DNA from: Gemmatimonadales bacterium | GTDB taxonomy: Bacteria > Gemmatimonadota > Gemmatimonadetes > Gemmatimonadales > GWC2-71-9 | DNA: 64,000 nt | Direction: 5' to 3' | Assembly: GCA_035763885.1 (NCBI GenBank) | Contig: DASUAH010000034.1 | Span: forward strand, 104 to 64,103 | In this document: positions 28,850-58,626 of the stretch, in pieces | Position numbering within the stretch: position 1 is the first letter of the stretch | Layout of the letters: each line of letters starts with the position of its first letter | Translations under genes and position numbers: made by a program | The notes under the pieces: model-generated | The model's database searches: none | Seen by the model: the letters and a program-made list of their open reading frames with translations, nothing else | What the model was told of the DNA's origin: nothing

Positions 28850-28981
28850 CTTGACGGACGGTCCTTTCAGCCTCTGAGGGCCCACGAGAAACGCCACGAC
28901 CACGGACAGACAAGCGCAACCGACGTGCCGCCCAAGGACGGACCGCCGAGGCGTGGGAACGGGGTAGTGGTAACTCGCATG

Positions 28982-29010
28982 ATTATACACCGTTGCCGCT
29001 TCGCTGTCGC
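28982..29010 (-). promoter_or_regulatory. internal promoter candidate GCGACA-N17-TATAAT at the 3-prime end of xoxJ
   Basis: A perfect TATAAT (28987-28982, minus strand) overlaps the xoxJ TAA stop, with exactly 17-nt spacing to GCGACA (29010-29005). It lies about 125 nt upstream of the cytochrome c ATG. Confidence 0.35.
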
Positions 29011-29957
29011 GGGGGACTCGACGGCGCCCCGGTCCCCGTGGCCGCCGGGGCGTCCCCCCGCGGGGCCGCTCTCGTACGCTCCTCCTCGGCCTTCTTCGGC
29101 TCGACCACCGGGAGCAGCGGCACGTGGTACTCGCGCAGGATGGCCTCGATCTCGGGTCGCTTCCGGTCGATCACCTGCTGCAGGCTGTCCCGCAGCTCCC
29201 CGTCCCGCCGCCGCACAGCCATCGACATGTTGAACGCAAACGGAATATCGGCCAGGCTGTCGTACTCGATCGGCCTGATGACGAGCGGCACCGGCGCCCG
29301 GGTGGCGAAGTAGCCGGCCAGCGGTCCCCAGACGATGGAGACATCGACCTTCTTGTCGACCACCGCGTCGATGATGGCTTCGGGGCGGTCGAGCTCGCTG
29401 TAGAAGGTGCCGAATCCCACCAGGTTGCCCACGACTCCGTGGCGGCTCAGCGCCATCGCGGGGGGCGTATTCTCCGCGTCGGAGTTGAGCAGGTTCACCC
29501 CGATCTTGAGCTTCTTCCAGTCGGGGTCATCCAGTGACTGGAGGTCGAGCCCGCTGTCCTTCCGGTAGACGATCACGTACGCCGAGCGGAAGTAGGGCTT
29601 GGTGGTCGCCGCCATGTCGAGCTCGGCGGGCGCGGTGAGGGCGATATCGCAGTAGCGGCCATTCAGGGCGCGCGAGAAGAACCCGCGGCGCACCGGCCAC
29701 CAGGCGTACTCGAGCTTCGCGTTCCATTCCTTGGCGAGGAGCTCGGCGATCTTGTTCTCGTAGCCCTCACCCTTCTCGTTCGAGGCCGGCATGTTGTCGG
29801 GGTCGGCACAGATGCGGAGCACCCCCGCCGTGGGGAGGGTCGAACGAAGGCCGCCGCCCTGCTGCGCCGGGGCGGGGGCGGGTGTCACGAGGAGCGCGAG
29901 CAGGCCAACGCTCGCGGCGGCTCGGAGCAGCATGCAGAAACGCTGGTGCGCGGTCAT
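28983..29957 (-). CDS. xoxJ: MxaJ/XoxJ-like periplasmic substrate-binding protein associated with quinoprotein dehydrogenases
   Basis: 324 aa. Signal, LRICADPDNMPASN, YENKIAELLAKEW and YCDIAL motifs typical of the MxaJ family. Pro/Ala-rich C-terminal tail. Confidence 0.85.
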   Translation of the reverse strand: MTAHQRFCMLLRAAASVGLLALLVTPAPAPAQQGGGLRSTLPTAGVLRICADPDNMPASNEKGEGYENKIAELLAKEWNAKLEYAWWPVRRGFFSRALNGRYCDIALTAPAELDMAATTKPYFRSAYVIVYRKDSGLDLQSLDDPDWKKLKIGVNLLNSDAENTPPAMALSRHGVVGNLVGFGTFYSELDRPEAIIDAVVDKKVDVSIVWGPLAGYFATRAPVPLVIRPIEYDSLADIPFAFNMSMAVRRRDGELRDSLQQVIDRKRPEIEAILREYHVPLLPVVEPKKAEEERTRAAPRGDAPAATGTGAPSSPPRQRSGNGV

Positions 29958-30127: not shown

Positions 30128-31939
30128 CTAGAGCGAGAAGACCGTCAGCACGCCACCCTGGGTGGAGAACTGACCCGCGTCGCCGAACGCGCCGAGCGCG
30201 CCCAGCCCCGCGGTCGGATCCTCGGCGCCGATCCCGGCGGCCACGCCGATGCCGGCCCAGCCACCGATGCCCGAGAGCACCGCGACGTACTGCTTGCCGC
30301 CGCTGGTGTAGGTCATCGGGTTGCCGATGATGCCCGAGGGCGTCTTGAAGCGCCAGAGCTCCTTGCCGCTCTGGGCGTCAACCGCCTTGAGCCAGCCTTC
30401 CATCGTGCCGTAGAAGACCACGCCGCCCGCCGTCGCGAGGGCGCCGCCGTACGCGGCGAGGTTCTCCTTGATCTCCCACTTCACGGTGCCCGCCATCGGA
30501 TCCCACGCGATGAACCGGCCGCGGTGACCGCCCGGGCCGGGGAACATGCGCACGATCGCGCCGACGTAGGGCTGGCCGGCCGAGTACTTCACTTCCACGC
30601 CCTCGTAGTCCATGCAGATGTGGTTCGCGGGGACGTAGAAGAGGCCGGTGGTGGGGCTGTATGCGGCGGGCTGCTGATCCTTGAAGCCGATCGCCGCCGG
30701 GCAGATGCCCTCGGTGTTCTTCTTGGAGGTGGTGCCGTACTTCGGATCGCGCACCGGGAGGCCGGTCGTCAGGTCGACGCTCTTGGCCCAGTTGACCGGG
30801 CCGAATGGCTTGGCCACGACCAGCTTGCCGTTGGTGCGGTCGAGCGTGTAGCCGAAGCCGTTACGATCGAAGTGGGCCAGCAGCTTCTGGCCGCCCTTCT
30901 CGAACAGCACCATCTCGTTGATGCCGTCGTAGTCCCACTCGTCGTGCGGCGTCATCTGGTAGGCCCAGACCACCGAGCCGTCGGCCGGCTTGCGGGCCCA
31001 GATCGTCATCGACCACTTGTTGTCGCCCGGCCGCTGGTCGGGGTTCCAGGTCCCGGGGTTGCCCGAGCCGTAATAGAAGAGATCGAGCTCGGGATCGTAC
31101 GAGTACCAGCCCCAGGTGGTGCCGCCGCCGCGCTTCCACTCGTCACCCTGCCAGGTCGACACGCCGAGGTCCTTGCCCTTGTGCGAGGCGTAGTTTGCGT
31201 TGCCGACGCCGTTCTGGATGCCGACCTCGTCGTCCGGACCGGTGGAGTACCGGGTCCAGAGATGCTTGCCGGTGTTCACGTCGAACGCCGAGACGCGGCC
31301 GCGGACGCCGAACTCACCGCCCGAAATGCCGGCAATGACGATGTCCTTGATCACGATCGGGGCGTTGGTCATCGTGGCGCCGGTCTTGTAACCGTTCGCC
31401 TCGGGACCCGCGTTCGACTTGTCCGGGTGCTTCGACTTCCACAGCTCCTTGCCGGTCTTGGCGTCGAGCGCGAGCAACTCACCCTGAAGCAGCTGGATGA
31501 AGATCTTGCCGCTGGGGTGGTACGCCGTGCCGCGGTTCACCAGGTCGCAGCACGCGATGGGAATCGCATCGGGCGACTGGTTCGGCACGTGCTTCCAGAT
31601 CTGCGGTGCACCCGGCTTGGAAAGGTCGAGCGCGTAGACGATGTTCGGGAACGAGGTGTGCACGTACATCACGTTCCCGATGATGAGCGGATTGCCCTCG
31701 TGACCTCGCAGCGTCCCGGTCGAGAACGTCCAGGCCGCTTTCAGGTTGGCCACGTTGGCAGTCGTGATCTGCTTGAGCGGGCTGAACCGCTGCATGCCGT
31801 AATCAATGCCCGTCATGTGCACCTCGCCCGCGGGCGCATTCAGGGTCCAAGCCCCTGACTTCGCCTGGGCGTTGGCGACGGTCGCGAGCGTGCAACTCGC
31901 GGCGACGCCACCCACCACCATCCGAGTAAAGCGGTTCAT
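30128..31939 (-). CDS. xoxF: PQQ-dependent methanol dehydrogenase, XoxF (lanthanide) type
   Basis: 603 aa from ATG 31939 (GAGG Shine-Dalgarno 6 nt upstream). Signal MNRFTRMVVGGVAASCTLATVANA, vicinal Cys IACCDLVNRG, PHDEWDYDGINEMV (D336-Y337-D338 at 30926-30934), and the MDH-type C-terminus GGVLTVFSL. Confidence 0.95.
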   Translation of the reverse strand: MNRFTRMVVGGVAASCTLATVANAQAKSGAWTLNAPAGEVHMTGIDYGMQRFSPLKQITTANVANLKAAWTFSTGTLRGHEGNPLIIGNVMYVHTSFPNIVYALDLSKPGAPQIWKHVPNQSPDAIPIACCDLVNRGTAYHPSGKIFIQLLQGELLALDAKTGKELWKSKHPDKSNAGPEANGYKTGATMTNAPIVIKDIVIAGISGGEFGVRGRVSAFDVNTGKHLWTRYSTGPDDEVGIQNGVGNANYASHKGKDLGVSTWQGDEWKRGGGTTWGWYSYDPELDLFYYGSGNPGTWNPDQRPGDNKWSMTIWARKPADGSVVWAYQMTPHDEWDYDGINEMVLFEKGGQKLLAHFDRNGFGYTLDRTNGKLVVAKPFGPVNWAKSVDLTTGLPVRDPKYGTTSKKNTEGICPAAIGFKDQQPAAYSPTTGLFYVPANHICMDYEGVEVKYSAGQPYVGAIVRMFPGPGGHRGRFIAWDPMAGTVKWEIKENLAAYGGALATAGGVVFYGTMEGWLKAVDAQSGKELWRFKTPSGIIGNPMTYTSGGKQYVAVLSGIGGWAGIGVAAGIGAEDPTAGLGALGAFGDAGQFSTQGGVLTVFSL

Positions 31940-42500: not shown

Positions 42501-42600
42501 GGGCCGGCCGGTCCTGCCGGAGCGGTTCGCGGAATGGCTGGCGCGACCCCGGCCGGTGATCCGGAGCTCCAGGCGCACGACCGGGATCCGCTCGGCCTGA
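39523..42600 (+). CDS. membrane sensor diguanylate cyclase/phosphodiesterase (periplasmic domain-HAMP-GAF-GGDEF-EAL)
   Basis: Two TM helices flank a ~300-aa periplasmic region. HAMP (LMPLEELQEGTRRIALRDFD), intact RIGGDEFTV, and EAL motifs (EALVRW, ELTES, DDFGTGYSSL). The start may instead be at 39466. Confidence 0.9.
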   Translation: MTLGRGLLRSRFGRRLVLLFVGCAVVPMALLAVLSWRHMTRQLERQSQLRLHQANRALGRAVFERLLLLEATLKNIPPTAIAELARSALVPEPPAAGPPARTGGVTGAVTRAPVDGRVALGGLKDRRGRAGDPPAPPAPSHDPEASRALAVGLDLLARSRFAALEFQPDVGRRLPVFGRLDRVPALTPAESAFVGESHTLVVTEHADTGAARIYLVRRMDRREARGFFVGEVSPAYLWGTREQGMPSPATHLAVVDDSGHVLFGPPPVTSAWGGPVDDTAATDPAEAGLSSTRVEPEVVASYWPVPIESVFGAPDWIIVLSEPREAVVGPMTDFASTFALIIALCTGVVLLLSMSQIRRSLMPLEELQEGTRRIALRDFDTRVAVTSHDEFAELAESFNSMATRLGRQFRALDTAADIDRAVLSATDATTIVRAVLARLPDVYPCAGACITLFPADRGGAGPSWVRSFGAAGVPELRRVEFAPGELRALAALPEVLELGDGDPLPACVRPLAELGLRSFVVLPLAYQQQLAGVLVLGAADASRTPDDLLHARRLADQVAVALSNARMIDQVRTLAYFDSLTGLLNRAAYKERLARALALAKRDRRSAAAFFIDLDNFGRINDTLGHELGDELLRQVAGRLRACCEAEESGPGPRARPEVARIGGDEFTVLVGGLPRPEDAVGLARRILAVFAPSFQLGQHDMFTTASVGVAVYPEDGEEVETLLAHADTAMYEAKHQGGNGYQLYSRSMNATALQRLTLENDLRRALERDELVLHYQPIVEAATGVIVGAEALVRWRHPSLGLLLPGEFIAIAEENGLIVPLGEWVLRTACAQNRGWQSAGLPPIRVVVNLSGRQLRQGNLIAGVRDALEAAGLEPEWLGLELTESMLMERQHEGVSALQALRAMGIQLSIDDFGTGYSSLSYLKHFPVDTLKIDRCFVRDLASVPDDAAITAAIIAMAHALDLLVVAEGVETEEHLGFLRAQGCDEVQGHLLGRPVLPERFAEWLARPRPVIRSSRRTTGIRSA

Positions 42601-45445: not shown

Positions 45446-46237
45446 CTACTGCTGTACGCCGATGAGCGCGGTGAGCCCGCCGCTTGCGAAGTTCGCGAGA
45501 TCGTCGCCCACCTTCTTGAACGCCGGAGTGGCGGTCCCCTTCGCCACGGCCTCGGACGACTCGAAGCAGAGCTCGGCCTGCCGGTACTTTGCCGCCGGGC
45601 TCCCGTCGAGGTTCGACTCGAACTTCGTGAGATCGGCACGGACGAAGCCGATCTCGCCCTGGCCGGCGCTCACCAGGGGGAGGTGGGTGTCGGCGTAGTA
45701 GCGCTCGAACACGGCGTGGTCCTTCGGGTGCTCGTAGATCACCGTGACCAGCGCGCGGCAGGCGGCCGGACTCTCTTCTCCGGTTTCAGTCGCGATCATG
45801 GCGATCAGACCGCCGGTCGCGAAGTTCGCGAGATCGTCGCCCACCTTCTTGAATGCGGGGGTGGCGGTTCCCTTCCTGAGGTCGTCCATCGAGCCGAAGT
45901 ACAGCTCCGCCTGGCGGTAGAACGTCGGCTCCTTGCCATCCAGTGTCGACACGAACTTCGTCAGCTCCGCGGTGGTGAACCCGATCTCACCCTGGCCGCC
46001 GCTCACCAGCGGCAGGTGCACCTCCCGGTAGTATTTCTCGAACGCCGCCGTGTCCTTCGGCTGCAGGTAGATCACCGTCACGATCGCCCGCGGGCCCGCC
46101 GCGGCCGCCGGGGCCGGCGCGGAGTCGGCCGAGGCGGCGGGCTTGTCAGCGGTTCGGCCGCAGGCGAGGGCGAGGGCCACGAGGACGACGGGGGCGGGGC
46201 GCATCTGGTCTCTCCGCTGATGATGGTGAGCATTCAC
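45446..46237 (-). CDS. tandem EthD-domain lipoprotein
   Basis: Lipobox VVLVALALAC (likely start MRPAP at 46204). Two ~105-aa EthD-like modules each begin IVTVIY/LVTVIYxxPKDxxxFExYY and end KGTATPAFKKVGDDLANFA(T/S)GGL. Confidence 0.8.
   Translation of the reverse strand: MNAHHHQRRDQMRPAPVVLVALALACGRTADKPAASADSAPAPAAAAGPRAIVTVIYLQPKDTAAFEKYYREVHLPLVSGGQGEIGFTTAELTKFVSTLDGKEPTFYRQAELYFGSMDDLRKGTATPAFKKVGDDLANFATGGLIAMIATETGEESPAACRALVTVIYEHPKDHAVFERYYADTHLPLVSAGQGEIGFVRADLTKFESNLDGSPAAKYRQAELCFESSEAVAKGTATPAFKKVGDDLANFASGGLTALIGVQQ
45486..45853 (-). repeat. internal tandem duplication (period 333 bp) within the EthD gene
   Basis: An identical 35-nt string, gcgaagttcgcgagatcgtcgcccaccttcttgaa, occurs at 45486-45520 and 45819-45853. 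The flanks are similar but diverged. Confidence 0.85.
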
Positions 46238-46238
46238 C

Positions 46239-47225
46239 CTACTCGGGATAGCACGACGCCGTCAGCACCGCGGGATCCAGGTTGCCCGCGCTGAAGGTGC
46301 GCCCGGTCGTCGTGCTGGTGAGCCGCACCTGGGCCGGGCTGAACAACAGCGGGTCGATCTTGTAGAAGTCGCCGTCGTAGCGCTGGAAGATCTCGTAGAA
46401 CGGTGTGCCACAATCGGGCGAGGAGGACGCCGGCACCTTCGGCGCCAGCTCGGCGAGTTCCTCGTCGCCGGCGCGCACGGTGAAGTGCGCCTGGGCGCCG
46501 TAGAGGATGCAGTCGTTGGTGCGGCCGATCGCGCGGATGTCGTTCTTTGCGACCGGAGGAATCGGCGCCATGCCCATGCCGCTGACCACCTTTCGCACAT
46601 CGAACCCCAGCGTCTCCATCTTGTGGAGCCCGGTCTCGAGCACCCGCGCCGCGATCTGGACGCCACCCGCGAGGCTGGCGGTGGGGGCGATGACGAACGT
46701 GAGCTGGGAGGGCTGGAGACCGGCCTTCGCCGCCACCCATGCCGCGACTGCGTCGGTAGGGAGCCGGCGGCCCTCGAGCACGAGCACGCCCTGCTCGGCC
46801 TGCTCGGCGTACTCCAGCTTCTCGAACAGCTCCTTCTCGACGCGGGCGTGCGCCCGCAACGGGCCGGACCCCATCGCGAAGAATTCCCCGACCGAGATCG
46901 CCCAGCCGGCGTACTGCGAGGCCATGCACGCCACCGCGGGGTGGTCCGTCCACACCGTGACCCCCGGCCAGGTGCGGTCGCCGATGGGCAGCGGGCTGTA
47001 GACGACGTTGCCCAGGCCGCCCATGCAGATCTTGGCGAGAGCGAGGCCGGCGTCGAAGCCACCGTCCACCTCCACTCCGGCGTCGATCACCCGTGCCCCG
47101 CCGGGCAGGCGATGGACCCGGACGCGGAGCCGCGCGGCATTCTCCTCCACGGCGTCCGCGATCTCCACCGCCAGCTCGTTGAGACCCAGCGCGTCGAGAC
47201 TGGGTGACGTCGTTCCGATGGTCAT
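46239..47225 (-). CDS. mch: methenyl-tetrahydromethanopterin cyclohydrolase
   Basis: 328 aa. Mch-typical ...VIDAGV...GG..AGL.LA.ICMGGLG.V...; SQYAGW; GSGP.RA. ATGA overlap with the upstream ftr. Confidence 0.9.
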   Translation of the reverse strand: MTIGTTSPSLDALGLNELAVEIADAVEENAARLRVRVHRLPGGARVIDAGVEVDGGFDAGLALAKICMGGLGNVVYSPLPIGDRTWPGVTVWTDHPAVACMASQYAGWAISVGEFFAMGSGPLRAHARVEKELFEKLEYAEQAEQGVLVLEGRRLPTDAVAAWVAAKAGLQPSQLTFVIAPTASLAGGVQIAARVLETGLHKMETLGFDVRKVVSGMGMAPIPPVAKNDIRAIGRTNDCILYGAQAHFTVRAGDEELAELAPKVPASSSPDCGTPFYEIFQRYDGDFYKIDPLLFSPAQVRLTSTTTGRTFSAGNLDPAVLTASCYPE

Positions 47226-48133
47226 GCGTGCGCCTCCGTGCTCTCCGCCATGATCTGCCGAAGGTGGAAGTGATGGGGGCCGAGCTTGCCGCCGTAGTTG
47301 CCCGCCGTGATCGACACCACGCCGTCGCGGCAGGCGGCGCCGATCCCGGCTCGCATCGCCCGGCTGATCGCGCCGGCGTCGAGGCCGTTGATCACGATCT
47401 CGAGCACCGAGTTGACCCCCTCGGGCAGCGCGGTCTGCGTGGCGGCCCGGAGCGTCGGGCAGAAGGCGTCGTTGGTCGAGGCGATCATCTTCTTCGAGCG
47501 GCGCGAGCCGACCTTGCTCCCGCTGCGCACCACGCCTCCGGGAAAGGGGAGAATGACTCCTGCCGCCGGCGTCATCGCCGCCACCGCCGCCTCCGCCGCG
47601 TCCAGCGCGGCGTCTGCGCTCCGGGCGAGGATCAGGAAGTTCCCCCCGCCCACGCCCTTCTGCATGCCGAACTTCTCCTGCACCAGGAACTCCCCTTCCA
47701 TGACCGGGATCCGCCAGAACCGCTCGCCGCGGAGCACCTTGCTCGCCTGAAAGCCGTCCCCGAAGAACCGGAGCACCGACCCGACGCCGATCCGGTCCGG
47801 GGCATCGGGCAGCCCGTCGAAGCAGGCGGTGGTCGGGCAGGTGAGCACCGTCTGACCCACGCGCTCGACCAGCCGGTTGGAGAGGTCGTCCTTTCCCATG
47901 GTCATGACGAGCACGCTCACGCCCGGCCGGCCGTCCGGCGTCTCCGCCGGAGCGAGCTCGCGCTCGATGCCCGCCTCGCACTTGCACCCGATGACCGATG
48001 TCGCGAAGCCCGTGAGCTTGAGCGCCGCCTCCCGGGCCCAGCGGAGCGTGCGCGCCGTGATGAGCACGCGCGCTACGCGGACGGTGAACGCCTCGGCAAA
48101 GGTGTCATCGATGAAGACGCCGCGCAGATACAT
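47222..48133 (-). CDS. ftr: formylmethanofuran:H4MPT N-formyltransferase (Ftr/FhcD), copy 1
   Basis: 303 aa. IDDTFAEAF..R.AR.LITA......A....TGFATSVIGC.CEAGIE, FFGDGFQ.SK, WRIPVMEGEF, GGGNFL. Confidence 0.9.
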   Translation of the reverse strand: MYLRGVFIDDTFAEAFTVRVARVLITARTLRWAREAALKLTGFATSVIGCKCEAGIERELAPAETPDGRPGVSVLVMTMGKDDLSNRLVERVGQTVLTCPTTACFDGLPDAPDRIGVGSVLRFFGDGFQASKVLRGERFWRIPVMEGEFLVQEKFGMQKGVGGGNFLILARSADAALDAAEAAVAAMTPAAGVILPFPGGVVRSGSKVGSRRSKKMIASTNDAFCPTLRAATQTALPEGVNSVLEIVINGLDAGAISRAMRAGIGAACRDGVVSITAGNYGGKLGPHHFHLRQIMAESTEAHA

Positions 48134-48160: not shown

Positions 48161-48976
48161 TCAGACCCAGACCAGGATCTCGCCCCGGCCGTCGTTGCCG
48201 AGGTCCCCCATGTACCGCCGCGCCCGCAGCCGCCCGTCGGGGAGCGTTCCGAACCGGCCGGGGAGCGTCCGCCAGGAGCGCACCAGCAGGGTGAGGAACA
48301 GGTTCGGGTGCTCGCCGCAGTCGTTGAAGGTGGCGACGAGCGCGGCGGGCGGCTGCAGCAGCAGCAGCGTGCCGCGCCGCATGGCCAGGCCCGGGAAGCC
48401 GCCCACCCGGCCGGCCACCGCGATGGTGCCGGCCACCATGCGGGACGCGCAATAGTCTCCTGCGTCGCCTTCGATCAGCACCATGCCCCGGCGCATGCGA
48501 TCGCCCACCCGGTCGCCGGCATTGCCGCCCACGACGACGGTGCCCCCGCGCATGCCGCGCCGCTCGCCCGCAAGCGCCGACGCCAGGAAGTCTCCGGCGT
48601 CGGCCGTCACGTGGAGCACGCCGCCCCGCATTGCGCATGCGGCACGGGCGCCGACGCTCCCGTGCACCTCGACAACCCCCCCGCGCATCCCGGCTCCGAC
48701 GTACGCGCCCGCGTCGCCCCGGACGATGACGTGTCCGTGCGTCATTCCCGCGCCGATCCGATCCAGCTTCTCGCATCCGCCCCGGATCTCGAGCTCCGAT
48801 CCGAAATCGCCGGCAATGGTGAACAGGTCGTCCACCCGAATCTTGCGGTTGCCGGTCGCGAGCTCGATTGCGGCCACCTGCGCCGGGGTCTTGCCGGCGA
48901 GGTGGTCGGCAGACAGCGGCGACAGGTCGACACGCTGGGCGGGCGGCTCGCGCAGCGTCAGGCGGAGCGTGCTCAT
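48161..48976 (-). CDS. fhcC: formylmethanofuran dehydrogenase subunit C-like (FwdC/FhcC), copy adjacent to ftr
   Basis: 271 aa. Gly-rich beta-helix repeats (GDAG..VGAGM.GG...V.G..G). Assignment to Fhc rather than Fwd is by position only. Confidence 0.85.
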   Translation of the reverse strand: MSTLRLTLREPPAQRVDLSPLSADHLAGKTPAQVAAIELATGNRKIRVDDLFTIAGDFGSELEIRGGCEKLDRIGAGMTHGHVIVRGDAGAYVGAGMRGGVVEVHGSVGARAACAMRGGVLHVTADAGDFLASALAGERRGMRGGTVVVGGNAGDRVGDRMRRGMVLIEGDAGDYCASRMVAGTIAVAGRVGGFPGLAMRRGTLLLLQPPAALVATFNDCGEHPNLFLTLLVRSWRTLPGRFGTLPDGRLRARRYMGDLGNDGRGEILVWV

Positions 48977-49015: not shown

Positions 49016-49846
49016 TCAGTTCGGCGCCGAGGGTGCCGCGGCGTCGAGCAGCAGCACCTCGCCGCGATTCAGCTCCACCGCGTCGCCGCACCAGCGCTGG
49101 TACGTCCCGTCCAGCATCGCGTCGGTGATGCCAAAGCCGAGCCGGCGAAGGTAGTGAAGATACGGGCGGAGGAAAGGGGGCTGGTAGGTGCACGAGTAGC
49201 TGAACGTCGGCAGCAGCTCCGCGGGGTGCATGGCCACGATCGAGCCGCGCCGCAGGCCCGCCCCCGCCCGCCAGCCGAGCGAGCCCAGGACGACGACCGT
49301 CCCGGCGAGCATGTTCACGCCGGCGAAATCGGCGCAATCGCCGCCTACGGCGATGAGCCCGCGCCGCATGCCGGCGCCGACCTCGTTCCCCGCGCTGCCG
49401 AAGACGAGGATCTCGCCGCCCCGGATCCCAACCGCGCTGCCCCGGCAGGCGCTGCCGACCATGTGCCCGGCGTTGCCCCGGACGACGATGCGTCCGCCCG
49501 TCATGTCCGGGCCCACCCAGTCGCCGGCGTCGCCCTCCACGATGATCTCGCCGCCGCTCATGCCCGCTCCGAGGTGCATGCCGACCGGCCCGTGCACCAG
49601 CACCCGGCCGGCAGCCATCCCCGCGCCAACCTGCTTGATCCGCGAGAGGTCGCCGGTGAGGCGCAGCTCGCCGTTGGCCGAGCCGGTCACGCGGAAGAAC
49701 TCGCCCAGCTCCGCGCGCTGGTTGCCATATACGACGCCCAGCTTCGCGACGTCGCGCCCGGACAGCCCGGACAGCCGGGCCGGGCTCAGAACCTCGGCCT
49801 CGAGCGGCACCGCCGGAGCGGTGTGGAGGGTGAGCTCCAGCGTCAC
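49016..49846 (-). CDS. fwdC: formylmethanofuran dehydrogenase subunit C (FwdC), copy coupled to fwdA
   Basis: 276 aa from GTG 49846 (GTGA overlap with the fwdA stop). Same Gly-rich repeats (GAGMAAGRVLVHGPVGMHLGAGMSGGEIIVEGDAGDW...). Confidence 0.85.
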   Translation of the reverse strand: MTLELTLHTAPAVPLEAEVLSPARLSGLSGRDVAKLGVVYGNQRAELGEFFRVTGSANGELRLTGDLSRIKQVGAGMAAGRVLVHGPVGMHLGAGMSGGEIIVEGDAGDWVGPDMTGGRIVVRGNAGHMVGSACRGSAVGIRGGEILVFGSAGNEVGAGMRRGLIAVGGDCADFAGVNMLAGTVVVLGSLGWRAGAGLRRGSIVAMHPAELLPTFSYSCTYQPPFLRPYLHYLRRLGFGITDAMLDGTYQRWCGDAVELNRGEVLLLDAAAPSAPN

Positions 49847-51525
49847 GGCCGGGCGGCCCCGGCGGCAGCCGCCTGCTGCATCGTGGGAACCACCTCGCCG
49901 TGGGGCACGTACCGGTCGTCCACGGCGTAGTTCCGGAACTGGATGGTGTAGTAGTCGTCGAAGAACGGCTCGATCACCTGCTCGATGCCGGCGTCGTAGT
50001 CGGGCGCCACGTGGTACACCCGCCCCTCGTGGTCGGCGCGGAACTCGTGGTCCTCGATGATCACGACGCCGTCCTTGAGCACGTACCGCGGGGCCGCGAA
50101 CATCTTCTCCTTGTCCGCGTCCTCCTCGTAGATGGTCACGTCGGCGTCGGCCCCGACGCCGAGATGGCCCTTGCTCGCGAGGCCGAGGAGCCGCGCCGGG
50201 CCGGCCCGGGTGACGATCGCGATCTCGTAGAGCGAGTACTCGCGGTCCTGGCAGTCGCGCAACCCGCTGTGTTCGAGAGCCTTCTGGTTCACCACGGCCA
50301 TCTGCTCCTTGCGGTACTCGCGGTCCATGAGCAGCCGGATGAGCCGGGGATAGCTGGTGAAGGATCCTCCGTTGGGGTGGTCGGTGGAGAACACCATGCG
50401 CCAGGGATCGTCCGACAGCAGGAACAGCTCGAGGCCGATCGCCCACTGGAGCGCGTTGGTGTAGACCCGGTCCTGATAGGTGAACGGGATGATCCCGCAC
50501 CCGCTCTCGTGCTCGGTGTCGGCGTTTACCCACTTCGCGCCGCCGAACTGCCGCAGCATGTAGACGGCGGGGGCGTCCGCGGTCATGATCGTCGCCCGCC
50601 CGAACATGACCGCGCCCACATCGGCGCTGATGTTCGGATGCGTGTTTATGTACTCGGCGATGTCCCGCGCCCGCGAGGTTGGGTTGTCGTGGCTCTTGCC
50701 GGCGACGGAGCCGTAGCTGTGGAACTGGATGTGGGCGATGTGGGCACGCCGGCCGTCGGCGATCCGCATCGTCTCGAGCGTCGTGTCAGCGTTGCCGCTG
50801 TGGCCCAGATTGTTGCAGTGGATGTGCACCGGGTGGGGCAGCCCCAGCTCGTTGGCGGCCTCGATGAACGCGCCGATCACAGTGCTCGGGGTGAGGTCGA
50901 AGGGGCCGATCTTGTCGTCCAGCCGGGTGATGTTCCCGTGCCCCTGGCCCTTCCACAGCTCGTCGCCGCCCGGATTCACCAGCTTCGGTGCGTATGCCTT
51001 CGTGGCGTTCAGCCACCAGGCGAGCGCGTGCCGGAACTCCTCCCGCCGTCCCTCCTGCAGGAGTCGGTAGAGGAGCACGCTGTTGCCCACCAGAACGTAG
51101 AACCCCTTGTCGATCACCGGCGTGTCGTGCAGCTCCTCGAGGGTGTGGCGCGCGCCCAGCGGAGTGACGGCCGCCTCCATTGCCGCGGTGTAGCCCAGCG
51201 CGGCGTAGCGGTAGCCCGTCGCGAAGGTGGAGGGCACCGTGCCGCCGGTTCCCGAGCGGGTGAACCGGGTGCGCGGATGCACGTCGCGCCGGTGATCTTC
51301 GGGCTGGACCTTGCGGGCGAGATTGACCTTGGGGCCGGCGATGTGGCAATGGATGTCCACGCCGCCGGGCATCACGACCATGCCGCGGGCATCGATCGTC
51401 TTCGCGTCCGGCGGCGCATCGGCGGCGATCCTGCCGTCGCGGATGCAGATGTCCCGCACGGCGCCGTCCACGCCGTTGGCCGGGTCGTAGACCCGGCCGT
51501 TGATGATGCGGAGCGACGATCCCAT
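49843..51525 (-). CDS. fwdA: formylmethanofuran dehydrogenase subunit A (amidohydrolase), copy 1
   Basis: 560 aa. PGGVDIHCHIAGPKVN (HxH metal site) and the metallo-dependent hydrolase fold throughout. Confidence 0.9.
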   Translation of the reverse strand: MGSSLRIINGRVYDPANGVDGAVRDICIRDGRIAADAPPDAKTIDARGMVVMPGGVDIHCHIAGPKVNLARKVQPEDHRRDVHPRTRFTRSGTGGTVPSTFATGYRYAALGYTAAMEAAVTPLGARHTLEELHDTPVIDKGFYVLVGNSVLLYRLLQEGRREEFRHALAWWLNATKAYAPKLVNPGGDELWKGQGHGNITRLDDKIGPFDLTPSTVIGAFIEAANELGLPHPVHIHCNNLGHSGNADTTLETMRIADGRRAHIAHIQFHSYGSVAGKSHDNPTSRARDIAEYINTHPNISADVGAVMFGRATIMTADAPAVYMLRQFGGAKWVNADTEHESGCGIIPFTYQDRVYTNALQWAIGLELFLLSDDPWRMVFSTDHPNGGSFTSYPRLIRLLMDREYRKEQMAVVNQKALEHSGLRDCQDREYSLYEIAIVTRAGPARLLGLASKGHLGVGADADVTIYEEDADKEKMFAAPRYVLKDGVVIIEDHEFRADHEGRVYHVAPDYDAGIEQVIEPFFDDYYTIQFRNYAVDDRYVPHGEVVPTMQQAAAAGAARP

Positions 51526-51544
51526 GATCCGCTCGGCCGTCCGG

Positions 51545-52894
51545 CTAGGCGGATGCGCCGGGCAGACTCACCGCGGGCGGGAGGCGGTTGCCGCCGAGGA
51601 GCGCACGCACCCGGTCACGGATGCCGGTGAGGATCTCCTGGTCGCTCGGGTACGGCGAGTCGAACGCCGGCCGCAGCGTGATCGGCACGTCATCCATGCG
51701 GTACACCGTCCCGGTCACGTTGATGCCGTAGGTGGCCGTGGTGAACGCCACCCGTGCCAGCTGGCTCGTGTGGGTGACCTTGGGGTCGAGCGTGATGACG
51801 GGGATATGCCGGAGGTGCTCGATCGCCGCCTTCGGGAAATTGGACGCGGGATCGCTCGCGATGATCAGCGCCGCGTCGGCGTCGCCGCGCGACAGGGTGT
51901 CCACCGTGGTGAACTCGCCCGGGTTGAACCGGGGGAAGCCGCGGCTGAAGTTCACCCCGAACGGGAAGCCGGTCTGCCACGACACCACGTTGTCCGCCCC
52001 GGTCACGTTGCCGTGCCCCCGCACGGGCTTGGCAACCCAGTGCGCGAACTCGTTGAGGTCCGTCGCCAGCGCGAGCAGCGCACCGGAGTTGAAGTGCCGC
52101 CCGCGGTTCATCGTGAGACCCATGCCGAACAGCAGCGCGCCGTAGCGGCAGCTCTTCATCCGCGCGACGAGATCCTCGAGGACGGCGAGCGACACGCCGG
52201 TCCGCCGCTCGATCGACGGATCGACCTTGCGCCCCCTGACCAGGGCGCGGAGCGCCCACAGCACCTCGAAATCGGTCCGGGGCTTGACCTGGATGAAGAT
52301 GTCGGCCACCGGCGTGCTCGCCGTGCGACGCACGTCGACCAGCACCACCGTCCGGTCCTTCCGGCCGTTGGGCGTGTACAGGCCCTTCGCGGTCACCGCG
52401 TAGCGGGTGAAGAGCCGCGGGTGCGCCTCGGCCGGGTTCCCTCCCCAGAAGACGACCATGTCGGCGCGGTTCTTGATCTCGCCCAGCGAGGCGGTGCTCT
52501 CGCCCACGCCCTGGAACGCGATCCCCGACGGGCCGTGGCAGACCGAGGTCGTGGTGTCCACCGTGCCCCCGATCATGTCGCCGATGGACACGGCGACCCG
52601 CTGCGCCTCGCAGGTCGTATCCGAGAGCCCGTAGATGATGGGGAACCGGGCCGTGGCGAGGATCTGCGCCGCTTCCTCGATCGCGTCCTCGACCGTGGCC
52701 TCCCGGCCCCCGATCAGCGCTGCCGGGCGCGCCTCCACGCCGTGCTCCCGGAACCACGCCTTCCCGAGCACGCAGGCGTTTTCGGCCTTGGTGATGCGCT
52801 TGTGCTCGAGGTCCACGGTCAGCACCATGTCGTCGCACACGCAGCCGCAGAACGTGCAGGTGGCGTTCTCGACCACCCGGGTGTTTTCGCTCAT
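51545..52894 (-). CDS. fwdB: formylmethanofuran dehydrogenase subunit B, catalytic-type (Mo/W-bisPGD fold with Cys-His ligand motif)
   Basis: 449 aa. N-terminal Cys cluster ATCTFCGCVCDD, TSVCHGPSG (Cys119 = TGC at 52538-52540, His120) and VRGHGNVTGADN. ATGA overlap with the fwdD stop. Confidence 0.9.
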   Translation of the reverse strand: MSENTRVVENATCTFCGCVCDDMVLTVDLEHKRITKAENACVLGKAWFREHGVEARPAALIGGREATVEDAIEEAAQILATARFPIIYGLSDTTCEAQRVAVSIGDMIGGTVDTTTSVCHGPSGIAFQGVGESTASLGEIKNRADMVVFWGGNPAEAHPRLFTRYAVTAKGLYTPNGRKDRTVVLVDVRRTASTPVADIFIQVKPRTDFEVLWALRALVRGRKVDPSIERRTGVSLAVLEDLVARMKSCRYGALLFGMGLTMNRGRHFNSGALLALATDLNEFAHWVAKPVRGHGNVTGADNVVSWQTGFPFGVNFSRGFPRFNPGEFTTVDTLSRGDADAALIIASDPASNFPKAAIEHLRHIPVITLDPKVTHTSQLARVAFTTATYGINVTGTVYRMDDVPITLRPAFDSPYPSDQEILTGIRDRVRALLGGNRLPPAVSLPGASA

Positions 52895-53268
52895 CCCGCT
52901 ACTCCTCCAGAGGGCGACGCGTCCTCCCGCACCGGCTCCACCTCCACCTCGAGGTTCTTGGAGATGGGCATCCCGCTCGCCGCCGTGTCACTCGCCATGA
53001 GCTCGCTGGACGCGGGCCCGTAGGCCATGAACAGGACGCCAGGCGGCAAGTCCTTGGTCTCGCGACTCTTGCACCGTACGACGGTCTCCCCGCCCGGCGT
53101 CCGCAGCCGCACCCGGCTGTTGTTCGCCAGCCCGAGACGGGCCATGTCCTCGACGTTCATCTCGACGGTGGTCGTCAGGTCCACGTATTCCGCGCCGAGC
53201 TTTCCGGCGCACAGGGAGGTCCCCTGCTTGCTGGAGCGCCCGCCGATCAGGGTCATCACCTCAGGCAT
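52891..53268 (-). CDS. fwdD: formylmethanofuran dehydrogenase subunit D (molybdopterin dinucleotide-binding beta-barrel domain)
   Basis: 125 aa. LIGGRSSKQG......K...Y......VEMN.EDM..LG......V.L....G..VV.C...........G..FM pattern typical of FwdD/FmdD. Confidence 0.85.
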   Translation of the reverse strand: MPEVMTLIGGRSSKQGTSLCAGKLGAEYVDLTTTVEMNVEDMARLGLANNSRVRLRTPGGETVVRCKSRETKDLPPGVLFMAYGPASSELMASDTAASGMPISKNLEVEVEPVREDASPSGGVAG

Positions 53269-53320
53269 ACGCCCCGCGGGTGGTGGATGATTCCCTACTT
53301 ACACCCGGGTTTCCCCGGTA

Positions 53321-54705
<1,385 letters not shown>

Positions 54706-54709
<4 letters not shown>

Positions 54710-55602
54710 GCGAGGATCTGGTGGAGGCGGAAATGGTGCCGGCCGAGCTTGCCGCCGTAGTCGCCGGCGCTGACCCGGCGGATCCCGTGCTCTGCGCCGA
54801 GCTTCAGGACCGCCTGGATGCCGGTCCGCATCGCGGCGGCGACATCGGGCGGCCGGAGGCCATCGATGACGATCTCCATGACCGCTCCGACGTCGGGGGT
54901 GAGCTGGGTGGCGGTCACGCCCCGGATGGTGGGGCAGAACGCGTCGTTGGTGGACGCACGGAGCGTCGCGTATTTCGAGCCCAGCTTCGAGCCCGAGCGG
55001 ACCACCCCGCCGGGGAATGGCATGATCACGTTCGGAATCTGCCGCATCGCGGCCACCGCCGCCTCGCACGCGCCGAGCGCCTGCGCCTGCGACTCGGCCA
55101 GCACGAGGAAGTTGCCGCCGCCCACCCCATTCACCATGCTGGTCGTATCCTGGATCAGGAAATCTCCGTCCATCACGGGAATCCGCCAGTACCGCTGGCC
55201 GCCGATCAGCTTCGAGGTCTGGAACCCGTCCCCGAAGAAGCGAAGGTACTTGCCGAGCGGCAGCGGCTCGCCCCCCTCCACGCCCGCGAAGACCGCGCTC
55301 GTCGGGGAGGTCAACACGCACTGCCCGACCCGGCGCTCGAGCTGCTTCGTCAGCTCTTTGGCAGACACCGCGAAGAGCAGCACCGAGATCCCGGGGCGAC
55401 CGTCGGGCGTCTCCTCGGCCGTCAGCTCGCGCTCGATGCCGGCCTCGCAGCCGCATCCGATCACCGAGGTCGCGAAGCCCGTGGCCGCGGTCGCGGCATG
55501 GTAGGCCCACTCCAGGTCCTGGGCGGTGATGAGAAACCGCGTGGCCTTCATGTCGAAGGCCTCCGCGAACGCGTCGTCGATCGTGACACCGTTGATGATC
55601 AT
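54706..55602 (-). CDS. fhcD: formylmethanofuran:H4MPT N-formyltransferase (Ftr/FhcD), copy 2
   Basis: 298 aa. MIINGVTIDDAFAEAFDMKATRFLITA...TGFATSVIGCGCEAGIE...FFGDGFQTSK...WRIPVMDGDF. Start at ATG 55602. Confidence 0.9.
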
Positions 55603-55607
55603 CGGGG

Positions 55608-57269
55608 TCAGCGCCGGCAGGGGTGAGTGACCACGCCGGCGCCGTGCCCGAAGGCCAACATCTCCTCCTCGGCGATGCGGAAGTTCTCCGCGCGAATGGT
55701 GTGAAACCGCTCGAAGTAGCTCTGGAGGCGCCGCTCGATGCCACGGTCGAACCCCGGCGCCACGGTGTGGAATCGTCCCCAGGTGACGCCCACGATGGTC
55801 CCGTTGCGAGCCACCAGCTCGCCGTCCTTGAACACGTACTCGGGCGCCGCGAACATCCGCTCGCGGTCGGGCTGGTCGCGATAGACCGTGATGTCGGCCG
55901 CGGCGCCGGGACCCAGATGGCCGCGGTCGCTCAGGCCGAGGATCCGCGCCGGCGCCGCCCGCGTGAGGATCGCGATCTCGTACAGGGAGTACTCGCGGTC
56001 GATGGTGCCCAGCGTGGTCATGGCCCGCGCGTCCGGCTGAATGAGCGCCAGCCGCTCGTTCCGGAAGGACCGGTCCATGAGCAGGCGGATGAGCTCGGGG
56101 TAGCTGGTGAACGGCGCGCCGTTGGGGTGATCGGTCGTGAGGAACACGCGCCAGGGGTCGCTCACCAGGAGGAAGATCTCGAGTCCGACCGCCCACTGGA
56201 GCGCGTTGACGAAGTTCTTGTCGCGGTAGCGGAACGGTACGACTCCACACCCGGCATCGCACTCGATGTCCATGATGACGGCTTTGCGGGGATGGCCGTG
56301 GGGGACGTTGCGATACTGGGCCATCGTGTCGCCCGAGGCGGTCACCGTCTGGCCGAACATGATCTGCCCCACGTCGCAGCTCACGTTCGGCTGGCGGTTG
56401 ATCGCCTCGGCGACGCGCGCGGCTCCCGAAGAGAATTTCCGGTCCCCCTCGGTGCCGTAGCTGTGGAACTGGATGTGGGTGAGGTGGATGGGGAGCCCCT
56501 CCGCCGCGCGCATCGTGTCCAGCGTCGTCGCGAGGTTGCCGGGCACGCCGAGGTTGCTGGCGTGCACGTGGAGCGGGTGCGGCACGCCCAGGTCGTCAAC
56601 CGCGCGGGCGAGCACGCGAACGATGTCCCGGGGCGTAACCTGGTAGTAAACGTGCCGCTCGTCGAGGTCCAGCTTCCGCTGGTTGAACTTGAACGCCGAG
56701 ATGCCGCCCGGGTTCACGACCTTGATGCCGATACAGCGCGTCGCGTGGAGGGTCCACGCCACGTAATCGTTGATCACGGCCTGCTCCTCGCCGGCCGCGA
56801 GCAGGCGCAACAGGAAGTCGTCGCTCCCCAGCATGGCGTAGCCGCCCTTGTCCACGATCGGCGTGTCCCCCATCTCCAGATGCGCCTGGCGGGCGTTGAC
56901 CGGCAGGATCGCGGGCTCGAAGCAGGTGGTGTATCCCATCGTGGCGTAGCGATAGCCCGCGGCGAAGGTTCCGGGCGCCGCGTGCCCGCTGGACGCACGG
57001 GTCAGCTCGGCGCGCGCCACCGGGTCGGCCCGGTGGTCCTCCGGCAGCATGGCCCGTGCGAGATTGACCTTGCCGCCGCCGATGTGCGTATGGATGTCGA
57101 TCGCGCCTGGCATCACGATCCGGCCGGTCAGGTCGTACTCGCGGTCGATCCGCTGCCTCGCCCCCGGCGGCGGGACGATGCGGTCCCCGCGCACGTAGAC
57201 GTCGCGCACCTGGCCGGCGACCGCATGCGCCGGGTCGTACAGCCGGCCACCCTTCAGTTTCAGCAGCAT
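55608..57269 (-). CDS. fhcA: formylmethanofuran dehydrogenase subunit A homologue (FhcA-type amidohydrolase), copy 2
   Basis: 553 aa. PGAIDIHTHIGGGKVN. Collinear with copy 1 but clearly diverged. Confidence 0.9.
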   Translation of the reverse strand: MLLKLKGGRLYDPAHAVAGQVRDVYVRGDRIVPPPGARQRIDREYDLTGRIVMPGAIDIHTHIGGGKVNLARAMLPEDHRADPVARAELTRASSGHAAPGTFAAGYRYATMGYTTCFEPAILPVNARQAHLEMGDTPIVDKGGYAMLGSDDFLLRLLAAGEEQAVINDYVAWTLHATRCIGIKVVNPGGISAFKFNQRKLDLDERHVYYQVTPRDIVRVLARAVDDLGVPHPLHVHASNLGVPGNLATTLDTMRAAEGLPIHLTHIQFHSYGTEGDRKFSSGAARVAEAINRQPNVSCDVGQIMFGQTVTASGDTMAQYRNVPHGHPRKAVIMDIECDAGCGVVPFRYRDKNFVNALQWAVGLEIFLLVSDPWRVFLTTDHPNGAPFTSYPELIRLLMDRSFRNERLALIQPDARAMTTLGTIDREYSLYEIAILTRAAPARILGLSDRGHLGPGAAADITVYRDQPDRERMFAAPEYVFKDGELVARNGTIVGVTWGRFHTVAPGFDRGIERRLQSYFERFHTIRAENFRIAEEEMLAFGHGAGVVTHPCRR

Positions 57270-57333
57270 CGGGTCAACCCGGGTTGGGCGGGAACCTGGG
57301 ACGGGGGACGAGCGGAACCGGTCGCGCCGACGG

Positions 57334-58626
57334 CTAGAGCGCGGCCTCGATGGCGTCCAGTACCTGTGCTACGCTCGGCAGCGCCGAATCGCGCAGCCGG
57401 CGGAGAGGCAGGGTCACCACCCGGTCGGTGCGAAAGAGATGGCCGGCATGGTCGATCCCGGGCGTCCCCACCGGGACGAACACCTCCGGCTCGCGATCGA
57501 GCGCCATCCCGGCGCGGCCCAGTACCACAGTCGGGACCGTGCTGCGGGGCGGCCCCCGGGTCGGGTCGAAGCTGGAGATCCACACCAGCACGTCGGCCTC
57601 GCCGCCCTCCAGCAGGCGCGGAGCCGAATAGAGGTACGCGTCGGCTTCCGGAAACCCGCAGCCGAACGAGGTCCGGAAGCCGTAGCCGGTCTGCCACACG
57701 TGCACGTTGTCGCTCGTGATGTCGCCGTCGCTGCCGCCCAGCGGCAGTCCGCTGAATCGCGTCGTGCGATTGAGATCCATGACCAGCTCACAGATCGCCT
57801 GCACCGCGAGGTCGGCGTGCGGAAAGTCGAGATCGGCGGCGGCCCACGCCACCACGCCGTAGCGGGCGGATCGCATCCGGCCGGCGAGCTCCATCCAGAC
57901 CGGAAGCGGCACGCCCGCCACCTCGCGCGCCTGCACCGCGCGTCCGGCGACCAGCGCGCGCAGCAGCCCGAACGCCTCGGGCAGCCGCGCCGGCGCACAG
58001 GGGATGGCCGCCGGAGCGGGGCCCGGGAGGGTCAGCCCCTCCGGCACGTCGCTCCCGACGAACACCACCTCGCAGCGGCGGTCGGTGCCGAACAGGGTCT
58101 CGCGGTTGGCGATGCACCGCTCGAAGAAGCGGGGAAACCGGCGGGTGATGTCGCTGCCGGCCACGACGAGGAGGTCGGCGCGGTTGCGGACCTCCGACAG
58201 CGTAGTCGTCATCCAGCCGCCGTCCTGCAGCACCAGTATGTTCCGCAGCACCGCGGGGGAGTTCATGTGATCCAGCACCCCGCCGCACCGGTCGGCGAGG
58301 CGCCCGGCCGCGCGCGCGCCGGCGACATCGGTCGCGAGGCCGGCGAAGAGCGGCTGCCGTGCGCCCCGCAGCAGCCGGGCCGCCTCGGCCGCGGCCTCCG
58401 GCAGCGTCGCCGCCCGCCCGCCTACGCGGGGCTCGGCGTCGCGAGGCAGCGACGCCTGCTCGAACGCGGACACGCTGATGGGACAGCCGTTGGCGCGCAC
58501 GCACAGCCGCCCCCCGTCTCGCGCGACGACGAGATCGTCGCACGTGAGCCCGCAGAACGGGCACGCGACGTTGCCGATTTCGTGCGACGGGGAAGGCGCG
58601 GACGTGCTCGCGGAGGACATAAACAC
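57334..58626 (-). CDS. fhcB: formylmethanofuran dehydrogenase subunit B homologue lacking the catalytic Cys-His (FhcB-type), copy 2
   Basis: 430 aa. It keeps the N-terminal Cys cluster (VACPFCGLTCDD). At the positions aligned by eye to copy 1 it has ...GGVLDHMNSPAVLRN (Ala-Val in place of Cys-His) and SGLPLGGSDGDITSDN (in place of VRGHGNVTGADN). The start may be ATG 58620. Confidence 0.85.
   Translation of the reverse strand: MFMSSASTSAPSPSHEIGNVACPFCGLTCDDLVVARDGGRLCVRANGCPISVSAFEQASLPRDAEPRVGGRAATLPEAAAEAARLLRGARQPLFAGLATDVAGARAAGRLADRCGGVLDHMNSPAVLRNILVLQDGGWMTTTLSEVRNRADLLVVAGSDITRRFPRFFERCIANRETLFGTDRRCEVVFVGSDVPEGLTLPGPAPAAIPCAPARLPEAFGLLRALVAGRAVQAREVAGVPLPVWMELAGRMRSARYGVVAWAAADLDFPHADLAVQAICELVMDLNRTTRFSGLPLGGSDGDITSDNVHVWQTGYGFRTSFGCGFPEADAYLYSAPRLLEGGEADVLVWISSFDPTRGPPRSTVPTVVLGRAGMALDREPEVFVPVGTPGIDHAGHLFRTDRVVTLPLRRLRDSALPSVAQVLDAIEAAL

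Follow-up and report, generated by a model that had tools for sequence, protein, structure and literature searches.

Bacteria that oxidize formaldehyde by way of tetrahydromethanopterin (H4MPT) are currently thought to end this pathway in free formate, which is released by the Fhc complex, the sole bacterial enzyme known to depend on methanofuran (MFR) (PMC6926001). The structural work on Fhc of Methylorubrum extorquens (FhcABCD; 6S6Y) explains its hydrolase-only function by the loss of five features, i.e., Cys118, His119, Arg288, the FwdD cap, and the N-terminal [4Fe-4S] domain; at the Cys position, its FhcB carries a Ser (PMC6926001). In a stretch of 64,000 nucleotides from a Gemmatimonadales bacterium (assembly GCA_035763885.1, contig DASUAH010000034.1, positions 104 to 64,103; here, "the window" denotes this whole stretch), an fhc gene set lies side by side with a fwdDBAC set in which all five of these features are present. 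It appears reasonably probable that this array encodes a hydrolytic Fhc, which yields formate, together with a genuine Mo- or W-containing FwdDBAC that oxidizes formyl-MFR to CO2, with the electrons most likely passing via ferredoxin and an FprA-type reductase to NADP+.

The described enzymes closest to the fwd set are archaeal. The tungsten formylmethanofuran dehydrogenase FwdABCDFG of Methanothermobacter wolfeii (5T5I) has the A, B, C, and D subunits in common with it, as well as the Fe-S Cys motif, the equivalents of Cys118-His119 and Arg288, the FwdA metal ligands, and the FwdD cap. In contrast to the M. wolfeii enzyme, the set in the window has no FwdF or FwdG, belongs to a bacterial and presumably aerobic host, has an FprA-type neighbor, and is predicted to work in the oxidative direction. 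The F420-reducing Fwd of Candidatus Ethanoperedens thermophilum (8RJA; PMC11493965, PMC11656701) was the top PDB match of both FwdB and FwdA. In this ethane oxidizer, Fwd passes its electrons to F420 rather than to ferredoxin, which pulls the oxidation (PMC11656701). It provides a precedent for formyl-MFR oxidation that is thermodynamically pulled by an acceptor at about −340 mV, and coupling to NADP+ would mirror this arrangement. Whereas the Ethanoperedens enzyme is archaeal and anaerobic and uses an F420 reductase module, the genes of the bacterial set point to an unrelated FAD flavoprotein of the adrenodoxin reductase family, with or without a 7Fe ferredoxin.

Bacterial fwd-like genes have already been noticed in surveys. 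A fwdDBA-ftr-fwdC cluster with the Fe-S domain and Cys118 was described in Actinobacteria from the Hakuba serpentinite site (PMC7325909); fwdD was reported to be retained in NC10, Firmicutes, and Synergistetes and was stated to be absent from Proteobacteria (PMC5020050); and 149 bacterial FwdB representatives were counted and read as transfers from Archaea (PMC10100899). These three studies include neither co-operonic Fhc and Fwd, nor a link to FprA or ferredoxin, nor biochemistry, and no description of a co-operonic arrangement or of an FprA/ferredoxin association was found in the open-access full-text literature. The locus reported here extends these scattered genomic hints and is not a categorically new system; set 1 (fwd) belongs by sequence to the Fwd/Fmd family, and the electron module predicted for it is of a new type.

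The alignments of FwdB to solved structures were almost gap free (8rja_B, 380 bits; M. wolfeii FwdB [5t5i_B], 367 bits), and its identity to archaeal FwdB is ∼50%. In the alignment to 5t5i_B, the motifs SVCHGPS and RGHxNVTG were both intact. Cys119 and His120, which the initial annotation had assigned to the metal ligand pair, are encoded by TGC (52538-52540) followed by CAC and align with Cys118-His119 of M. wolfeii, and the alignment equally bore out the predicted RGH-x-NV-x-G motif, in which Arg292 is found (VRGHGNVTG). The N-terminal Cys cluster had to be corrected in one position. C13, C16, and C20 of the proposed cluster stand, but Cys18 was wrongly counted as a ligand; homology assigns the role of fourth Fe-S ligand to Cys41 (ENAC). 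Cys18, an additional cysteine within the CTFCGCVCDD segment of the Fe-S motif, has no counterpart in M. wolfeii FwdB. Altogether, the pattern of four Cys, Cys-His, and Arg-Gly-His in FwdB of the window is identical to that of the M. wolfeii protein. The separate FwdD is likewise real, since the Pfam Molydop_binding family (PF01568) matched above its cut-off and the top PDB matches were the archaeal FwdD chains 7bkb_J, 5t5i_D, and 8rja_D; the match to NF042908 stayed below its cut-off. FwdA scored 495 bits to 8rja_A and 480 bits to 5t5i_A versus 391 bits to FhcA of M. extorquens, and all ligands of its binuclear metal site (HxH, carboxy-Lys, H, H, and D, in the segments DIHCH, KLVNPGG, HIHCNNLG, HIAHIQFHSYG, and TDHPNG) are kept. 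The product of a second formyltransferase gene, ftr2, scored slightly higher against archaeal Ftr (1ftr, 317 bits; 1m5s, 314.5 bits) than against FhcD (308 bits) and probably feeds the Fwd route. Set 1 and M. extorquens Fhc differ in all of the features that mark the lost dehydrogenase function.

Set 2 (fhc) is, as predicted from its proteins, an ordinary Fhc complex. The M. extorquens subunit was the top PDB match for each of FhcA, FhcC, and FhcD, the opposite of what was found for FwdA and FwdB, and FhcB reached only 100 to 119 bits against archaeal FwdB chains. The alignment to 5t5i_B substantiated that FhcB has Ala-Val at the Cys-His site (SVCH replaced by SPAV) and has lost the RGH motif, with GGS at this position. 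It has no FwdD partner, as had been proposed: the single fwdD gene is linked to fwdB, the two overlapping by 4 nt. FhcA possesses the metal ligands HxH, K, H, H, and D, and FhcC aligns to 6s6y_C over residues 3 to 269, including the Fhc-type C terminus, whereas its alignments to archaeal FwdC stop near residue 220. Set 2 therefore resembles M. extorquens Fhc in an FhcB devoid of Cys-His and Arg, in the missing FwdD, and in the gene order fhcB-A-D...C; the operon in the window differs in being split by the reductase gene and fwdDBAC. That the characterized Fhc of Methylobacterium is a metal-pterin-free hydrolase releasing formate, as stated in the initial annotation, agrees with the M. extorquens structural paper (PMC6926001).

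Relatives of FwdB were collected from one genome per species, and close relatives were present in at least 580 species genomes. The nearest were Gemmatimonadales metagenome-assembled genomes (MAGs), with identities of up to 92%, and a reductase entry 100% identical to the reductase of the window (P0121) is likewise of Gemmatimonadales MAG origin. Look-ups of the exact sequences of this entry and of FwdB of the window gave no recorded contig, and gene context was taken from homologs. The best 80 of these at least 580 genomes were all MAGs, from Gemmatimonadales, Gamma-, Alpha-, and Betaproteobacteria, and Caldilineaceae, and they include the "USCg_Taylor" bin of upland soil cluster gamma (USC-gamma), Candidatus Methylophosphatis, and Candidatus Oxydemutatoraceae. 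Across these groups, FwdB was 73 to 88% identical, and the gene order fwdD-fwdB-fwdA-(ftr)-fwdC was seen in every locus long enough to show it. Such identity across phyla, in at least 580 species genomes, speaks for strong purifying selection. The proteobacterial MAG loci with fwdD contradict the absence of this gene from Proteobacteria stated earlier (PMC5020050).

All B-type proteins from the related loci were then compared in one alignment, in which the Fhc type was represented by 32 proteins from the loci, or 33 including FhcB of the window. Cys-His and Arg-Gly-His were kept in all 84 Fwd-type B subunits, one of which lacks the first three Cys columns of the alignment, and fwdD was kept in 72 loci. 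In contrast, these motifs were retained in none of the 33 Fhc-type B subunits and in none of 141 diverse FhcB representatives drawn from a 1.84-billion-protein library clustered at 50% identity; hydrolase-type FhcB proteins, a group that might have kept CHGPS and RGH, thus have neither. The two types often stand in the same operon. An intact site in all Fwd-type subunits, its loss in Fhc-type subunits often encoded in the same operon, and the 73 to 88% identity across phyla are what is expected of selection on a working metal-pterin site. These data bear on the idea of set 1 as another hydrolase or scaffold isoenzyme, devoid of redox chemistry, in whose B subunit the motifs are leftovers of a recent transfer from Archaea. 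In favor of this idea, only the hydrolytic Fhc has been characterized in bacteria (PMC6926001), and the genes of the Gemmatimonadetes island were published simply as fhc (PMC5103831). However, leftover motifs would have to persist in every Fwd-type B subunit across several phyla while the Fhc-type paralogs, under the same mutational regime and often in the same operon, have all lost them; with fwdD kept and an identity unlike that under relaxed selection, a redox-dead set 1 is highly improbable. At the level of sequence and comparative genomics, the earlier proposal of an oxidative formyl-MFR dehydrogenase beside the hydrolytic route is therefore supported, with all the features lost in Fhc being present.

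The Fe-S motif, in contrast, did not separate the two types. FhcB of the window, a protein of 430 aa, keeps all four N-terminal [4Fe-4S]-motif Cys (C22, C25, C29, and C48), and the four Cys were kept in 32 of the 33 Fhc-type B subunits and in about 85% of the 141 FhcB representatives, whereas the 361-aa FhcB of M. extorquens has no N-terminal Fe-S domain. Most FhcB proteins, although predicted scaffolds, thus appear to retain an Fe-S cluster. Loss of the domain seems specific to the M. extorquens lineage rather than to the Fhc family, with M. extorquens FhcB being atypical. A third type of B subunit, ∼36 to 38% identical to FwdB of the window, was found in some Gemmatimonadales loci (L007:14776-16023, L009:14961-16226, L010:14403-15896, and L014:7253-8542). 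In this type, all four Fe-S Cys and the Arg of RGH are retained, the metal-ligand Cys is replaced by Ala, Thr, or Pro, and A, ftr, and C genes belonging to it follow. It may represent a stage between Fwd and Fhc in evolution.

The 1.4-kb interval between the two sets is not a spacer but contains the gene of an FprA/adrenodoxin reductase-type protein. Its product is a full-length homolog of Mycobacterium tuberculosis FprA (1LQT; 390 bits to 1lqt_A over residues 11 to 455) and of mitochondrial adrenodoxin reductase (1cjc; 365 bits), with both dinucleotide motifs present (GSGPSG at 18 and GQGNVA at 157). Among the 48 related loci with enough flanking sequence to be informative, the reductase gene flanked fwd in 33, in one of two positions: directly upstream of fwdD (Gemmatimonadales and Betaproteobacteria) or downstream of fwdC together with a ferredoxin gene (Gamma- and Alphaproteobacteria). 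The gene of a 101-aa ferredoxin, with a Cys pattern of the 7Fe FdxA type, was present in 39 related loci and adjoined the reductase gene in those in which its position was looked at (L005, L006, L008, L087, and L090). 7Fe ferredoxins are reported partners of FprA. While FprA normally transfers electrons from NADPH to ferredoxin for cytochromes P450, the flow proposed here would be reversed, from ferredoxin to NADP+, and its context is C1 metabolism. A 520-aa read-through of reductase and FwdD (P0165, L087:4420-5982) was considered as a Rosetta-stone fusion and rejected as a probable assembly artifact: on its contig, fwdB is frameshifted and fwdD truncated, and the fusion occurs in only 1 of 120 listed reductase homologs.

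Taken together, two distinct enzymes consuming formyl-MFR would be made from one array. In the Fhc complex, FhcD would transfer the H4MPT-bound formyl group to the furan cofactor and FhcA would hydrolyze the formyl furan cofactor, so that free formate is released, with FhcB as a scaffold devoid of a Mo/W site. For FwdDBAC, which with free Ftr would constitute a Mo- or W-bis-pyranopterin formyl-MFR dehydrogenase, we infer that the metal cofactor is bound and that the enzyme works oxidatively: FwdA would hydrolyze formyl-MFR, formate would be converted to CO2 at the metal-pterin site of FwdB and FwdD (Cys119 as ligand, His120, and Arg292), and electrons would exit via the [4Fe-4S] cluster of FwdB. 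The predicted acceptor chain leads from a 7Fe FdxA-type ferredoxin, as encoded beside the reductase gene in relatives, through the adjacent FprA-type flavoprotein to NADP+. Physiologically, the branch point between assimilation and dissimilation would then move from formate to formyl-MFR.

The NADP+/NADPH couple lies at about −320 mV. Because the CO2+MFR/formyl-MFR couple lies at about −530 mV (PMC11656701), coupling to NADP+ would be exergonic and would pull the reaction strongly toward oxidation. Alternatively, set 1 might work reductively and form formyl-MFR from CO2 and MFR, as in methanogens, for C1 assimilation or as an electron sink. Fwd/Fmd enzymes can run in both directions, with CO2 fixation in archaeal relatives (PMC11656701), and among the bacteria with such genes, Anaerolineae, Caldilineaceae, and the serpentinite Actinobacteria (PMC7325909) may be anaerobes with a Wood-Ljungdahl-like metabolism. 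Yet a potential of −530 mV demands a ferredoxin of very low potential, and the cluster has neither a bifurcating module (Hdr/Mvh or Nfn-like) nor FwdF and FwdG; moreover, an NADPH-linked reductase as neighbor favors oxidation, and the context is one of methanol oxidation, with an XoxF-type dehydrogenase and Fhc. Reduction as the physiological direction is therefore very unlikely.

Several observations weigh against an oxidative FwdDBAC that delivers its electrons to NADP+ by way of ferredoxin and the reductase. FwdF/FwdG polyferredoxins were not found in the window or in the related loci, so the electron exit would differ from that of every characterized Fwd; the missing proteins are accessory and not catalytic subunits. 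Among the ∼55 genes of the 64-kb window, mapped by GC content at third codon positions and annotated with Pfam and NCBIfam, there was none for Mo/W cofactor biosynthesis, for molybdate or tungstate transport, or of the fdhD type, and none for cofactor biosynthesis, metal transport, or fdhD recurred among the gene families near fwd in 86 related loci. The characterized Fwd/Fmd enzymes are oxygen sensitive, and the host is presumably aerobic. Biochemical work on any bacterial Fwd was not found in the open-access full-text literature. Finally, the reductase gene was missing from 15 of the 48 informative loci, no 7Fe ferredoxin homolog was detected in the window (tblastn, E<1e-5), and two Gemmatimonadales contigs (L089:2961-9242 and L092:3099-9212) have the order fhcB-fhcA-fhcD-reductase-fhcC-mch and no fwd in ∼15 kb, which shows that the reductase is not strictly tied to fwd in cis. 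In these fhc-only operons, the reductase gene is either a relic of fwd loss or has a role that is not tied to Fwd.

The last three points also favor a scenario in which set 1 is redox active but has no dedicated partner in the reductase. The general ferredoxin pool or another acceptor would then take up the electrons, and the reductase would balance ferredoxin and NADPH in general or act at a different step of the C1 island, for example, in cofactor biosynthesis. A search starting from the reductase gave seven contexts: four beside fwdD/fwdB, two in fhcBAD-reductase-fhcC operons that have no fwd, and one beside a 2-oxoacid:ferredoxin oxidoreductase. The last of these, in an Acidiferrobacterales MAG (L093:6197-11598), has the ferredoxin and FprA-type reductase pair next to a three-gene 2-oxoacid:ferredoxin oxidoreductase and not next to fwd; it speaks for a nondedicated reductase, and pairing with another low-potential ferredoxin enzyme fits a general module for passing electrons from ferredoxin to NADP+. 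On the other hand, the position adjacent to fwd recurs in two gene orders across phyla, six of the seven contexts are H4MPT/MFR C1 clusters, four of them directly beside fwdD/B, and we know of no other ferredoxin-dependent step in the bacterial H4MPT pathway. A reductase that is not dedicated to Fwd is therefore rather unlikely. Overall, the ferredoxin/reductase module appears to be an outlet through which low-potential oxidoreductases pass electrons via ferredoxin to NADP+, and in most but not all cases it is tied to fwd. As a speculation, the retention of the Fe-S motif in FhcB and the reductase gene in fhc-only operons could also reflect an unrecognized redox connection of the "hydrolytic" Fhc.

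Within the array, the genes on the minus strand follow the order fhcB-fhcA-fhcD-reductase-fwdD-fwdB-fwdA-fwdC-fhcC-ftr2-mch-EthD-domain gene-CitG-like gene-PTPS. From 58626 to 44057, the array looks like one transcription unit, a statement for which the short or overlapping junctions are the sole basis; a promoter and terminator scan gave no signal above background. Overlaps of 4 nt join fwdD and fwdB (ATGA), fwdA and fwdC (GTGA), the reductase gene and fhcD, and mch and ftr2, and a gap of 19 nt separates fwdB from fwdA. All seven open reading frames of the initial annotation translate exactly at the minus-strand coordinates given there, and its junctions (the fwdD/fwdB and fwdA/fwdC overlaps and the fwdB-fwdA gap) were exact as well. 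It ended at 49016; fhcC and ftr2 lie beyond this point, and with them, both sets are complete. The canonical order fhcBADC (PMC6926001) is thus split, with the reductase gene and fwdDBAC inserted between fhcD and fhcC, which suggests that the fwd block was inserted into the fhc operon or later excised from fhc. Other Gemmatimonadales loci (L018 and L021-L023) show the same split between fhcD and fhcC, and the block there consists of fwdD-B-A-ftr-C and has no reductase gene. The Fwd and Fhc paralogs are old, as estimated from their pairwise identities (29% for FwdB and FhcB, 46% for the A subunits, 34% for the C subunits, and 57% for the formyltransferases).

The nearest relatives of FwdB and the genes around the array place the locus in a methylotrophic context. 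Butterfield et al. described a Gemmatimonadetes methylotrophy island with proteomic support, in which the genes were all labeled simply "fhc" (PMC5103831), and the C1 gene array in the window is this island. An XoxF-type dehydrogenase gene is followed downstream by those of a MoxJ-like protein and a methanol-related cytochrome c (Table 1), which together with the Gemmatimonadales relatives supports reading the organism as an aerobic methylotroph; the host is presumably an aerobic soil bacterium of the Gemmatimonadales using methanol via an XoxF-type enzyme. Genes for H4MPT and methanofuran biosynthesis in the window include those of β-RFAP synthase, a DHPS-like protein, MfnB, and ATP-grasp ligases. 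None of the annotated genes in the window was fae, mtdB, or a formate dehydrogenase gene; in the 86 related loci, fae and mtdB are recurrent gene families. Beyond the cytochrome c gene, the same strand encodes a pentapeptide-repeat protein (27495-28313) and then a β-propeller protein (26420-27274). Between mch and the CitG-like gene lies the gene of a 252-aa protein with two EthD-domain matches (45446-46204), and its position is also filled in other Gemmatimonadales C1 islands (L001, L089, and L092). At the edge of the island, a 1,009-aa signaling protein with HAMP, GAF, GGDEF, and EAL domains is encoded (39571-42600), and a similar gene borders the island in L092.

Table 1. Features of the methanofuran-related gene array and the methanol oxidation genes in the window
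Feature	Position	Strand	Supporting matches and residues
fhcB, B subunit without metal-pterin active site	57334..58626	-	TIGR03129, 301.6 bits (below cut-off of 327.8); C22, C25, C29, C48 present
fhcA, formyl-MFR hydrolase subunit (amidohydrolase)	55608..57269	-	TIGR03121, 757 bits; 6s6y_A (M. extorquens FhcA), 439 bits, top PDB match
fhcD (ftr1), formyltransferase subunit	54706..55602	-	TIGR03119, 436 bits; 6s6y_D, 334 bits, vs archaeal Ftr, 293 bits
FprA/adrenodoxin reductase-type NADPH:ferredoxin oxidoreductase, 462 aa	53321..54709	-	390 bits to 1lqt; 4-nt overlap with fhcD
fwdD, pterin-dinucleotide-binding cap domain	52891..53268	-	PF01568, 46.8 bits (cut-off 26.8); NF042908, 62.9 bits (cut-off 175); archaeal FwdD PDB matches
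fwdB, catalytic subunit of Mo/W-bis(pyranopterin guanine dinucleotide) type by sequence	51545..52894	-	TIGR03129, 491 bits (cut-off 327.8); C13, C16, C20, C41; Cys119-His120; Arg292-Gly-His
fwdA, amidohydrolase subunit	49843..51525	-	TIGR03121, 691 bits; archaeal FwdA top PDB matches
fwdC, GXGXG β-helix subunit	49016..49846	-	TIGR03122, 250 bits; archaeal Fmd/FwdC, 160 and 146 bits, vs FhcC, 143 bits
fhcC, C subunit	48161..48976	-	Pfam GXGXG; 6s6y_C, 162 bits, full length, vs archaeal FwdC, 125 bits; 34% identical to FwdC
ftr2, second formyltransferase, archaeal-like	47222..48133	-	Pfam FTR and FTR_C; 57% identical to ftr1
mch, methenyl-H4MPT cyclohydrolase	46239..47225	-	Pfam MCH, 408 bits; 4-nt overlap with ftr2
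XoxF-type pyrroloquinoline quinone (PQQ) methanol/ethanol dehydrogenase	30128..31921	-	TIGR03075, 674 bits; TIGR03871, 269.6 bits; TIGR03874, 51 bits
MoxJ-like protein	28983-29957	-	Downstream of XoxF-type gene
Cytochrome c, methanol-related	28400-28903	-	Downstream of XoxF-type gene

A direct route from the formyl group to CO2, as predicted here, goes beyond what bacterial biochemistry has established. In its widest form, the proposal is that FwdDBAC, 7Fe ferredoxin, and the FprA-type reductase constitute a bacterial, NADP-coupled, and oxygen-compatible formyl-MFR dehydrogenase that bypasses free formate and occurs widely among uncultured methylotrophs of soils and sediments and among atmospheric-methane oxidizers (Gemmatimonadales, USC-gamma, and other Proteobacteria); we regard this as possible and put it forward tentatively. 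If true, it would add a third type of Fwd electron module, after polyferredoxin/Hdr and F420 reductase, and would give a family of CO2-converting enzymes that is of interest for biocatalysis a member naturally exposed to oxygen. For genome annotation, in which current pipelines call both paralogs "formylmethanofuran dehydrogenase subunit B," the three-residue signature of Cys-His and Arg separates the two cleanly. If functional, the Fwd set would give the H4MPT-linked pathway a second exit, leading straight to CO2 with the reducing power captured as NADPH, and would change flux models for the methanol and methane oxidizers that dominate soil metaproteomes (Gemmatimonadetes; PMC5103831) and for the USC-gamma atmospheric-methane oxidizers.

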